Source: Escherichia phage LF82-1. Taken from it: a stretch of DNA of 64,000 bases. The DNA is taken from the sequence record PV648359. One strand, 5' to 3'. The position numbers and the translations under genes were made by a program. Under the pieces are notes generated by a model. That model saw nothing but the letters and a program-made list of their open reading frames with translations, was not told the origin of the DNA and ran no database searches. Below are positions 34,158-35,180 of the stretch, piece by piece; position 1 is the stretch's first letter, and each line of letters begins with the position of its first letter.

Positions 34158-34790
34158 TCACAGTACGTTAGTTACAAGGGTAATGATTTCTTTGGACACA
34201 TTAGGGAAGTCAATGTAAGTATATTTACCACCGATCTTAATCTTAACATCATTTTCAAGAGAAGTAAACAGCTTTGATTCAGTTTCTGACATGTTGTATG
34301 CAAAGATTCTAAGAGCGCCATCTCGACGAATTTCGATCTGACGAATGCCTAGAACTCGTTTAGTGAATCGAACTTCTAAGTTACTACGGTTTTCACCAAT
34401 TTCTTTAACTTCAACTTTATCTTTAATATTTTCAAAAACAAAGTTTGCTAATTCATGCATTTCAGGAGTAACTCCACGTGCTTTTCTGGTGTTACGTTTC
34501 TGGAGAAGTTCTGGAGCATTTTCTTGAGCAAATAGGTCTGCAGCTTTTTGGATAATATCCATTGCTTCGCCGGTTGCCACAAGTCCATCACCGGATTTTT
34601 CGACTAAACCTTTTTTAATCAATACACCAATGTTAGAGTTAACAACCGATGCATTGTATTCCGCTTTCAGAGCTTCACGGACATTGGCAGCAGTGGTGAA
34701 GTTGTTCTTAATGATATAAACCATTATTGCAGCAGTTTTTTCATTCAGAGCGTTTTCAGAAGCTTTGATGATGTAAGTAACTTTAGACAT
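34158..34790 (-). CDS. motA: middle-transcription activator MotA
   Basis: 210 aa; MSKVTYIIKAS...VVNSNIGVLIKKGLVEKSGDGL matches recalled T4 MotA. Confidence 0.9.
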   Translation of the reverse strand: MSKVTYIIKASENALNEKTAAIMVYIIKNNFTTAANVREALKAEYNASVVNSNIGVLIKKGLVEKSGDGLVATGEAMDIIQKAADLFAQENAPELLQKRNTRKARGVTPEMHELANFVFENIKDKVEVKEIGENRSNLEVRFTKRVLGIRQIEIRRDGALRIFAYNMSETESKLFTSLENDVKIKIGGKYTYIDFPNVSKEIITLVTNVL

Positions 34791-34860
34791 TTTATTTCTC
34801 CAAATTAGTATTTGTTTGATAGGTCTATAATATCATGTTTGAAGCAAAAGTAAACTTTAT
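34778..34860 (-). repeat. about 85-bp direct repeat copy A (promoter, leader, RBS and MSK start module of motA)
   Basis: Near-identical to 35094..35180. Confidence 0.7.
34827..34855 (-). promoter_or_regulatory. T4-type early promoter upstream of motA (contains TTGCTTCA MotA-box-like element)
   Basis: GTTTAC, 17 nt, TATTAT. Confidence 0.55.
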
Positions 34861-34892
34861 TTTGGGCTCTTTTTCAAAAGCCCTGGTAAAAT

Positions 34893-35108
34893 TTACAAAC
34901 TCATTTCTTTAATAAGGCTAATAAGTTTTGCCTTTTTAGAACGAAGCTTTTCTAAATGATGTCCATTTGAACCGCGAACCACTAAAGAATTGATTTCAAC
35001 TTCTAAGAAATTTAATTCTTCAACAAGTGCTTTACGGAGAGCATTCATACCAGGTTTAACTTTACCGAAACGAGTAGTTGTGTTTTGGGTTAATTTCATT
35101 TTAGACAT
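34893..35108 (-). CDS. hypothetical protein (52.1 position)
   Basis: 71-aa basic ORF with duplicated promoter/RBS module. Confidence 0.45.
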   Translation of the reverse strand: MSKMKLTQNTTTRFGKVKPGMNALRKALVEELNFLEVEINSLVVRGSNGHHLEKLRSKKAKLISLIKEMSL

Positions 35109-35180
35109 TTTATTTCTCCAATTTGGTTGTTTTGTTTTGATAGGTCTATAATATCATGTTTGAAGCACATGTAAACTGTT
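35094..35180 (-). repeat. about 85-bp direct repeat copy B (promoter, leader, RBS and MSK start module of 52.1-like ORF)
   Basis: Near-identical to 34778..34860. Confidence 0.7.
35148..35176 (-). promoter_or_regulatory. T4-type early promoter (duplicate of motA promoter module)
   Basis: GTTTAC, 17 nt, TATTAT. Confidence 0.55.

Follow-up and report, generated by a model that had tools for sequence, protein, structure and literature searches.

The locus considered here lies in a stretch of 64,000 nucleotides (nt) from Escherichia phage LF82-1 (sequence record PV648359), hereafter called the window, and it raises a simple question: why do motA, the gene for the activator of middle transcription, and the small open reading frame (ORF) in front of it, ORF71, begin with nearly the same promoter, leader and first codons? 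A preliminary description had reported this duplicated module of promoter, leader, ribosome-binding site (RBS) and start codon at 34778..34860 and 35094..35180. A repeat finder and BLAST agree on its existence, and these coordinates proved correct to within a few bases. What that description missed is the main meaning of the repeat, which is that of a recombination substrate for the gain and loss of an ORF. It is highly probable that the two copies are a pair of early-promoter cassettes of the promoter-early stem-loop (PeSL) type, bracketing an optional ORFan next to motA, and the locus is an unexceptional case of the way in which T4-like phages exchange small genes by means of recombining promoter/stem-loop cassettes. 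In transcription order, on the minus strand (as are all features of the locus given below), it comprises gene 52, a 26-amino-acid (aa) ORF, a terminator hairpin, copy 2 of the repeat, ORF71, a second hairpin, copy 1 and motA.

Within the window, BLAST aligned copy 1 (34782..34856) with copy 2 (35100..35177) over 78 columns with 89.7% identity, two gaps and an E-value of 2e-17, and pairwise alignment confirmed that the copies are near-identical, including the first codons (MSK). The repeat finder resolved the same homology into two ungapped blocks, one of 57 nt (34808-34864/35129-35185, 86% identity) and one of 28 nt (34782-34809/35100-35127, 93% identity), which are offset by a 3-nt indel. The preliminary description had staked the duplication on an identity above that of other early promoters, and we compared all 276 pairs of the 24 minus-strand early promoters in the window, region by region. 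The motA/ORF71 pair ranked first of the 276 in four regions: the spacer (0.88, versus 0.78 for the best other pair), the core from -35 to +8 (0.91 versus 0.84), the last 25 nt comprising the RBS, the ATG and 6 nt (0.92 versus 0.88) and the whole module (0.79 versus 0.73). Nothing set the pair apart in the 20 nt upstream or in the -35 and -10 elements. The 24 promoters share a long consensus, and because this background core identity is high (mean 0.64, and up to 0.84 in other pairs), about two-thirds of the identity of the repeat corresponds to generic promoter consensus. The excess identity of the two copies sits in the spacer and in the RBS/start block.

Both copies, defined by the repeat finder, BLAST and promoter matching, fit the T4/RB69 early-promoter consensus and have an A-rich region upstream of the promoter. 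Each contains GTTTAC-N17-TATTAT with a TG extended -10 and the motif TGCTTCA in the spacer, and continues with AGACCTATCAAA, a leader of approximately 20 nt that was unstructured on folding, and TTGGAGAAATAAA-ATG-TCT-AAA, in which a GGAG Shine-Dalgarno (SD) sequence precedes the ATG by 7 nt. In copy 2, the -35 GTTTAC occupies 35176..35171, TGCTTCA 35167..35161, the -10 TATTAT 35153..35148, GGAG 35119..35116 and ATG TCT AAA 35108..35100, with a predicted +1 near 35141. The corresponding positions in copy 1 are 34855..34850, 34846..34840, 34832..34827, 34801..34798 and 34790..34782, with a predicted +1 near 34820. The RB69 orthologue was already in the list of Nolan 2006 as early promoter Pe:162713, flagged '1 bp del' (17-bp spacer). 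A stem-loop element stands upstream of each copy. That of copy 2 (35188..35221; -14.6 kcal/mol, z -3.8), found by folding, is an intrinsic terminator, GGGAGC-CGAA-GCUCCC plus a U-tract, that closes the gene 52 unit. Its equivalent is annotated as a terminator in relatives, and the RB69 terminator 'motA<--52' was listed by Nolan 2006. That of copy 1 (34864..34883; -12.3 kcal/mol, z -3.5) is the hairpin GGGCUUUU-GAAA-AAGAGCCC, which has no U-tract and was identified by folding and covariation: across nine sequence variants, 98.6% of the cells are paired, versus 26-67% when the partners are slid, and there is one compensatory G-C/A-U pair with a G-U intermediate, together with a variable loop. 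Since the module is duplicated ahead of both genes, motA (34158..34790) and ORF71 (34893..35108), the latter taken from the ORF list, would both be expected to be immediate-early genes with the same translation-initiation region.

In a PeSL, an early promoter, a stem-loop, an SD sequence and an ATG are combined within a conserved stretch of approximately 100 bp that borders ORFans (Arbiol, Comeau & Krisch 2010, PMC2839356; Comeau et al. 2014, PMC4122927). When flanking PeSLs recombine, the products are deletions, insertions or mini-circles, and the crossovers that have been mapped lie between the -10, the SD sequence and the ATG (PMC2839356, PMC4122927). The LF82-1 locus resembles these cassettes in that approximately 80-100 bp of homology flank an ORFan that some close relatives have and others lack. 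Both copies are predicted to contain a strong early promoter of the sigma70-like kind, preceded by A/T-rich sequence, both have a stable promoter-associated stem-loop, and both end in an SD sequence and a start codon (GGAG-N7-ATG twice). The flanked ORFan differs between close relatives, ORF71 being present or absent and ORF75 or ORF73 being found elsewhere; recombination between the copies is seen in two natural classes of hybrid promoter with junctions within the repeat; and the clustering of PeSLs in plastic regions has its counterpart in the window, where 10 pairs of neighbouring early promoters are separated by less than 900 bp. The locus differs from the described PeSLs in that the cassette is not part of an ORFan cluster but immediately precedes motA, a key regulatory gene, that the stem-loop precedes the -35 instead of covering the -10, that the copy-1 hairpin is without a U-tract and that the homology in Mosigvirus runs three codons into the coding sequence. 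Neither motA, RB69 nor JS98 is mentioned in PMC4122927 (2014), and motA is not mentioned in PMC2839356 (2010).

The comparison with relatives provided the evidence for recombination. ORF71 is present in 93 phage records, all of Mosigvirus and Dhakavirus, and roughly half of the approximately 154 Mosigvirus-level records carry it (~78 full-length versus ~74 two-piece matches). In the ORF71-less genomes examined, the single motA promoter is a hybrid of copies 1 and 2. SSE1 and WFL6982 have an upstream flank, spacer and leader of the copy-2 type, joined to motA directly after ATGTCTAAA; because the copy-2 type runs up to this sequence, the crossover lies in the RBS/start block. The very same junction was found at 99% identity or more in 60 records. 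RB69 and pEK20 combine an upstream flank and spacer of the copy-2 type with a leader of the copy-1 type, which places the junction in the promoter core. These recombinant junctions fall between the -10, the SD sequence and the ATG, as do those of PeSL mini-circles. Since the two types of motA leader cannot both be ancestral, at least one class of ORF-less genomes arose by recombination between the repeats.

The homology between the two copies is likely to consist of two layers of different age, an old promoter core of 41 nt and an RBS/start block of 24 nt whose identity arose in Mosigvirus only. The 41-nt core has an identity of 0.93 between paralogues in Mosigvirus and 0.96 in Dhakavirus, compared with 0.89-0.92 between orthologues and 0.90 in cross comparisons. 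The same core drives motA in Klebsiella phage PhiKpNIH-6 (Marfavirus; positions 660..740 of the retrieved locus) and, with variation (box TGCATTA), in Serratia phage X20 (Winklervirus; 610..710 of the retrieved locus), despite the fact that the genes upstream of motA differ in these two phages. This distribution indicates that the 41-nt core is the old, conserved and usual type of motA promoter across several genera, with T4 as the outlier. The 24-nt block has an identity of 0.96 between paralogues in nine of nine Mosigviruses and of only 0.64 in Dhakavirus, where ORF71 starts with MNKMK, and this identity is thus specific to Mosigvirus. Because the Marfavirus motA carries the same TTGGAGAAATAAAATGTCTAAAGTT as the Mosigvirus block, and because the Dhakavirus paralogues are so dissimilar, the block is taken to be motA's own, with ORF71 having received its copy in the Mosigvirus lineage (MNK to MSK).

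The place between gene 52 and motA is variably filled in other phages. In T4, motA follows motA.1 with no other ORF in between, and the one motA promoter comes immediately behind the motA.1 terminator. This promoter resembles those of LF82-1 in its position after the gene 52/motA.1 terminator, in its upstream flank (TTTTTTCACAAAACGGTTTAC in T4), which is similar to that of copy 2, and in its leader and start, which are similar to those of copy 1; the GGAG SD sequence, the start ATG TCT AAA and immediate-early expression, which is predicted in LF82-1, are likewise common to both. It is unlike them in being a single copy with an 18-bp spacer of different sequence (AACCAAAGCATACTGTGG) and without a forward TGCTT. 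In Sf21 (Tequatrovirus; 857..1084 of the retrieved locus) and Esco_phi_B-01 (Dhakavirus), the slot is filled by an unrelated 75-aa ORF, ORF75 (MKFKIENEIV...). IME08 has ORF71 followed by a 73-aa ORF, ORF73 (MKTLNINSFF...), and three promoters, of which the third, that of motA, is different: it lacks TGCTT and carries a dyad over the -10. No Pfam match was obtained for ORF71, ORF75 or ORF73. These comparisons suggest that the gap between gene 52 and motA is a hot slot holding zero, one or two immediate-early ORFans, and that the hairpin-plus-promoter unit travels with the slot and not with any particular ORF. The arrangement also resembles the lambdoid morons (Juhala/Hendrix), in which a lone accessory gene with its own promoter and a terminator-like hairpin lies between two conserved genes; it differs from them in that the flanking regulatory sequences are themselves sites of homologous recombination, a distinction taken from PMC2839356. 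As a separate observation, motA of Bp7 is annotated as two consecutive coding sequences (922..1131 and 1131..1413 of the retrieved locus), which could be due to a frameshift, a sequencing error or a pseudogene.

Taken as PeSL-type cassettes, the copies would work as follows. Each would comprise a stem-loop, a strong sigma70 early promoter of the T4 type, an unstructured leader, a GGAG SD sequence and a start codon, and ORF71 would be a small accessory ORFan inserted between gene 52 and motA. Each copy would fire immediately after infection, so that ORF71 and MotA would be produced in the first burst of early expression from the same translation-initiation region, which may also be a cleavage site for RegB/S1. 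As the comparison with relatives shows, the repeats serve as substrates of homologous recombination through which the ORF is inserted, deleted or replaced with motA expression undisturbed.

Several points weigh against this interpretation. Concerted evolution of the core would be visible as a within-genome excess of identity, and this excess is small (0.93-0.96 versus 0.89-0.92), too small to support ongoing gene conversion; homogenisation within genomes appears weak, if there is any, and an isolated co-variation is seen in VR5, whose two copies both contain TTA. The cores would also stay alike if a strong promoter were kept under purifying selection. Insertion into an RB69-like ancestor and deletion from an ORF71-bearing one are not polarisable, because the mid-leader is too short; with the Marfavirus outgroup, the ancestral motA leader was not polarised either (0.84 versus 0.81 identity). 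The copy-1 hairpin is without a U-tract, and the terminator half of the PeSL is uncertain there. Finally, promoter use, the +1 positions and RegB cleavage in LF82-1 are all predictions from the DNA sequence.

The explanation that competes best with PeSL-type cassettes starts from the motif in the spacer, which the preliminary description had read as a MotA-box-like element within a module whose duplication suggested co-regulation and possible autoregulation by MotA. According to this explanation, selection for co-regulation keeps the repeat identical, and TGCTT(C/T)A is an operator at which MotA, with or without AsiA, shuts off both motA and ORF71. In its favour, TGCTT does not vary at this site among motA-type promoters from Mosigvirus, Dhakavirus, Marfavirus and Sf21; T4 has TGCTTT in its motA spacer, in inverted orientation; WWTGCTTYA is enriched, occurring 25 times in the window where 9.8±3.5 would be expected; and the mechanism by which early promoters are shut off is still unknown (PMC2988021). 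The geometry, however, is wrong for a MotA box. MotA-dependent promoters lack a -35 element and have their box at a distance of 12±1 bp from the -10, so that GCTT occupies -30..-27 (PMC2988021, PMC1524935), whereas TGCTTCA ends 7 bp from TATTAT in both copies, with GCTT at -25..-22, and the -35 GTTTAC is intact at a 17-bp spacing, so that the box does not replace it. The consensus (a/t)(a/t)(a/t)TGCTT(t/c)A is matched by copy 1 (TTTTGCTTCA), but copy 2 (ATGTGCTTCA) lacks the A/T prefix. Moreover, conservation does not single the box out from the remaining core, since AAC and TG next to it in the spacer are just as invariant; in forward orientation, the box is missing from the motA promoters of T4 and IME08; and variants are found in WFL6982 (TGCTTAA) and X20 (TGCATTA). 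No report of autoregulation or repression by MotA, or of its action on its own promoter, was found in the literature searched. The autoregulation that had been proposed is thus without supporting evidence, and we regard autorepression maintained by selection as unlikely. A more specific proposal, that TGCTT(C/T)A, kept in at least four genera and inverted in T4, is an operator through which newly made MotA switches off its own promoter and that of the adjoining cassette gene, is quite improbable. If it were true, the way in which T4-type early promoters are shut off would be explained in part, by a mechanism that is concrete and open to testing.

It is very improbable that each copy is instead a composite of an early and a middle promoter, used by MotA and AsiA through sigma appropriation, like the 'PmSL' variants of phage nt-1 (PMC4122927). 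Like MotA/AsiA-dependent middle promoters, the copies have a TAnnnT -10 and contain TGCTT(t/c)A, and PmSLs do exist in nt-1, but neither copy has a TAnnnT 11-13 bp downstream of the box, the 7-bp spacing and full -35 set them apart, and the RB69 orthologue was placed by Nolan 2006 among early promoters only. The copies also differ from six middle-like promoters at other places in the window that have the proper spacing, and activation of the copies by sigma appropriation is very unlikely. A further explanation, that the likeness is merely a generic T4-type early-promoter/RBS consensus at two sites with no special relation, could draw on the general similarity of the early promoters in the window and on the reappearance of the -10/+1 core ATGATATTATAGACCTATCA near 52127 and 46868, but it is already refuted by the ranking of the motA/ORF71 pair above all 275 others in the spacer, core, RBS/start and whole module and by the hybrid alleles of relatives, which show recombination between the two sites. 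We also considered and rejected a transposon-type target duplication (the repeat is too long and a mobility gene is absent), an assembly artefact (the same structure is present in more than 75 independent genomes) and an origin of ORF71 as a duplicated 5' end of motA (only MSK is in common, and the Dhakavirus ORF begins with MNK).

The shared translation-initiation region has a further potential role as a target of RegB. Uzan et al. are said to have described in 1990 the T4 motA early promoter and its RegB-sensitive SD sequence. RegB cuts the T4 motA mRNA within the GGAG SD sequence and thereby limits MotA synthesis to an early burst (Sanson & Uzan 1993, reviewed in PMC2988021 and PMC3014915), and strong RegB sites follow the consensus GG*AGRAYARAA. 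In both copies, the GGAG is unpaired and precedes the ATG by 7 nt, in a translation-initiation region that is intergenic and belongs to a predicted early mRNA, and the shared block GGAGAAATAAA is unpaired and A-rich and matches five of the seven downstream consensus positions. The mRNAs of motA and ORF71 are therefore plausible targets of RegB/S1.

Under the PeSL-type reading, the locus offers a clear-cut case of gene shuffling by PeSLs in nature, with both parental repeats in the window and two classes of recombinant junction in relatives, and here the shuffling adjoins the master regulator of middle transcription. It also illustrates that the tract of homology can reach into the coding sequence and rewrite the N-terminus of a neighbour. 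The immediate-early ORFans of the gene 52/motA slot are candidate host-takeover or anti-defence genes. What is known of regulation in T4 stays unchanged by the locus.

The region is 100% identical to that of Escherichia phage LF82-2 and 97-99% identical to those of JS09, Shf125875, PhAPEC2 and ATK47, which are Mosigviruses (RB69 group). The window itself belongs to a Mosigvirus of the RB69/JS09 group. The product of motA, assigned from the ORF list, PHROG and comparison with T4, has 210 aa, matches its PHROG with an E-value of 7e-90 and is 51% identical to T4 MotA. ORF71 had been labelled '52.1-like', but it gives no alignment with T4 gp52.1. The true homologue (36627..36767; 74% identity to T4 gp52.1, and so annotated in relatives) lies outside the module, upstream of gene 52, whereas ORF71 lies downstream of gene 52 and before motA. 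Two easy annotation errors are corrected in this way, the '52.1-like' label and the reading of a Mot box as a sign of control by MotA. ORF71 encodes a 71-aa ORFan product belonging to phrog_6200, a PHROG of unknown function; no Pfam domain was found in it. It matches only eight clusters among 5.8 billion proteins, all from phages of the Mosigvirus/Dhakavirus type, and a scan of IMG/VR for ORF71 loci yielded nothing beyond JS98 and VR5. Its AlphaFold2 (AF2) model predicts a disordered basic N-terminus and a generic helical hairpin (pLDDT, the predicted local distance difference test score, 76), with no Foldseek match in the PDB at E<=0.001.

The upstream neighbour of the module is gene 52, encoding the medium subunit of topoisomerase II (35297..36622; ORF list and annotation of relatives). 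Its stop codon is overlapped by the hydrophobic 26-aa ORF MSALALGFLGAIAALVIWLYWLDKHD (35220..35300; ORF list and T4 gene order), which occupies the position of T4 motA.1 (49 aa) and has no PHROG match. In SSE1 and WFL6982, the start codon of this ORF is TTG instead of ATG. The Dhakaviruses and Mosigvirus pEK20 have in its place an unrelated hydrophobic ORF of 34 aa together with a terminator of the Dhakavirus type, and pEK20 is thus a mosaic at the motA.1 position.

Other promoters in the window merit mention. Six minus-strand boxes with an 11-13-bp spacing to TAnnnT, at 63914, 45568, 23759, 20598, 16032 and 3241, are candidate middle promoters. Approximately nine of the 24 early promoters have inverted repeats of 7-11 bp in the spacer or across the -10 that are significant against shuffled sequences and correspond to the common PeSL subclasses. 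Dyad-bearing early promoters have their -10 hexamers at 38235, 37723, 17263, 10218, 9034, 7628, 1608 and 47444 (minus strand), and compensatory differences are seen between them (TAGGACTA/TAGTCCTA versus TAGGATTA/TAATCCTA); the motA/ORF71 pair has no dyad over the -10. The early promoter with its -10 at 59618 (minus strand) has the spacer AAGCACCGCATACTGTGT, the -10 TACTAT and then ..CTATCAACTA, and it closely resembles the T4 motA promoter, which consists of the spacer given above, TACTAT and ACAACTATCAACTA (approximately 3130..3175 of the retrieved locus). Promoter types thus appear to be shared across genera at different genes.

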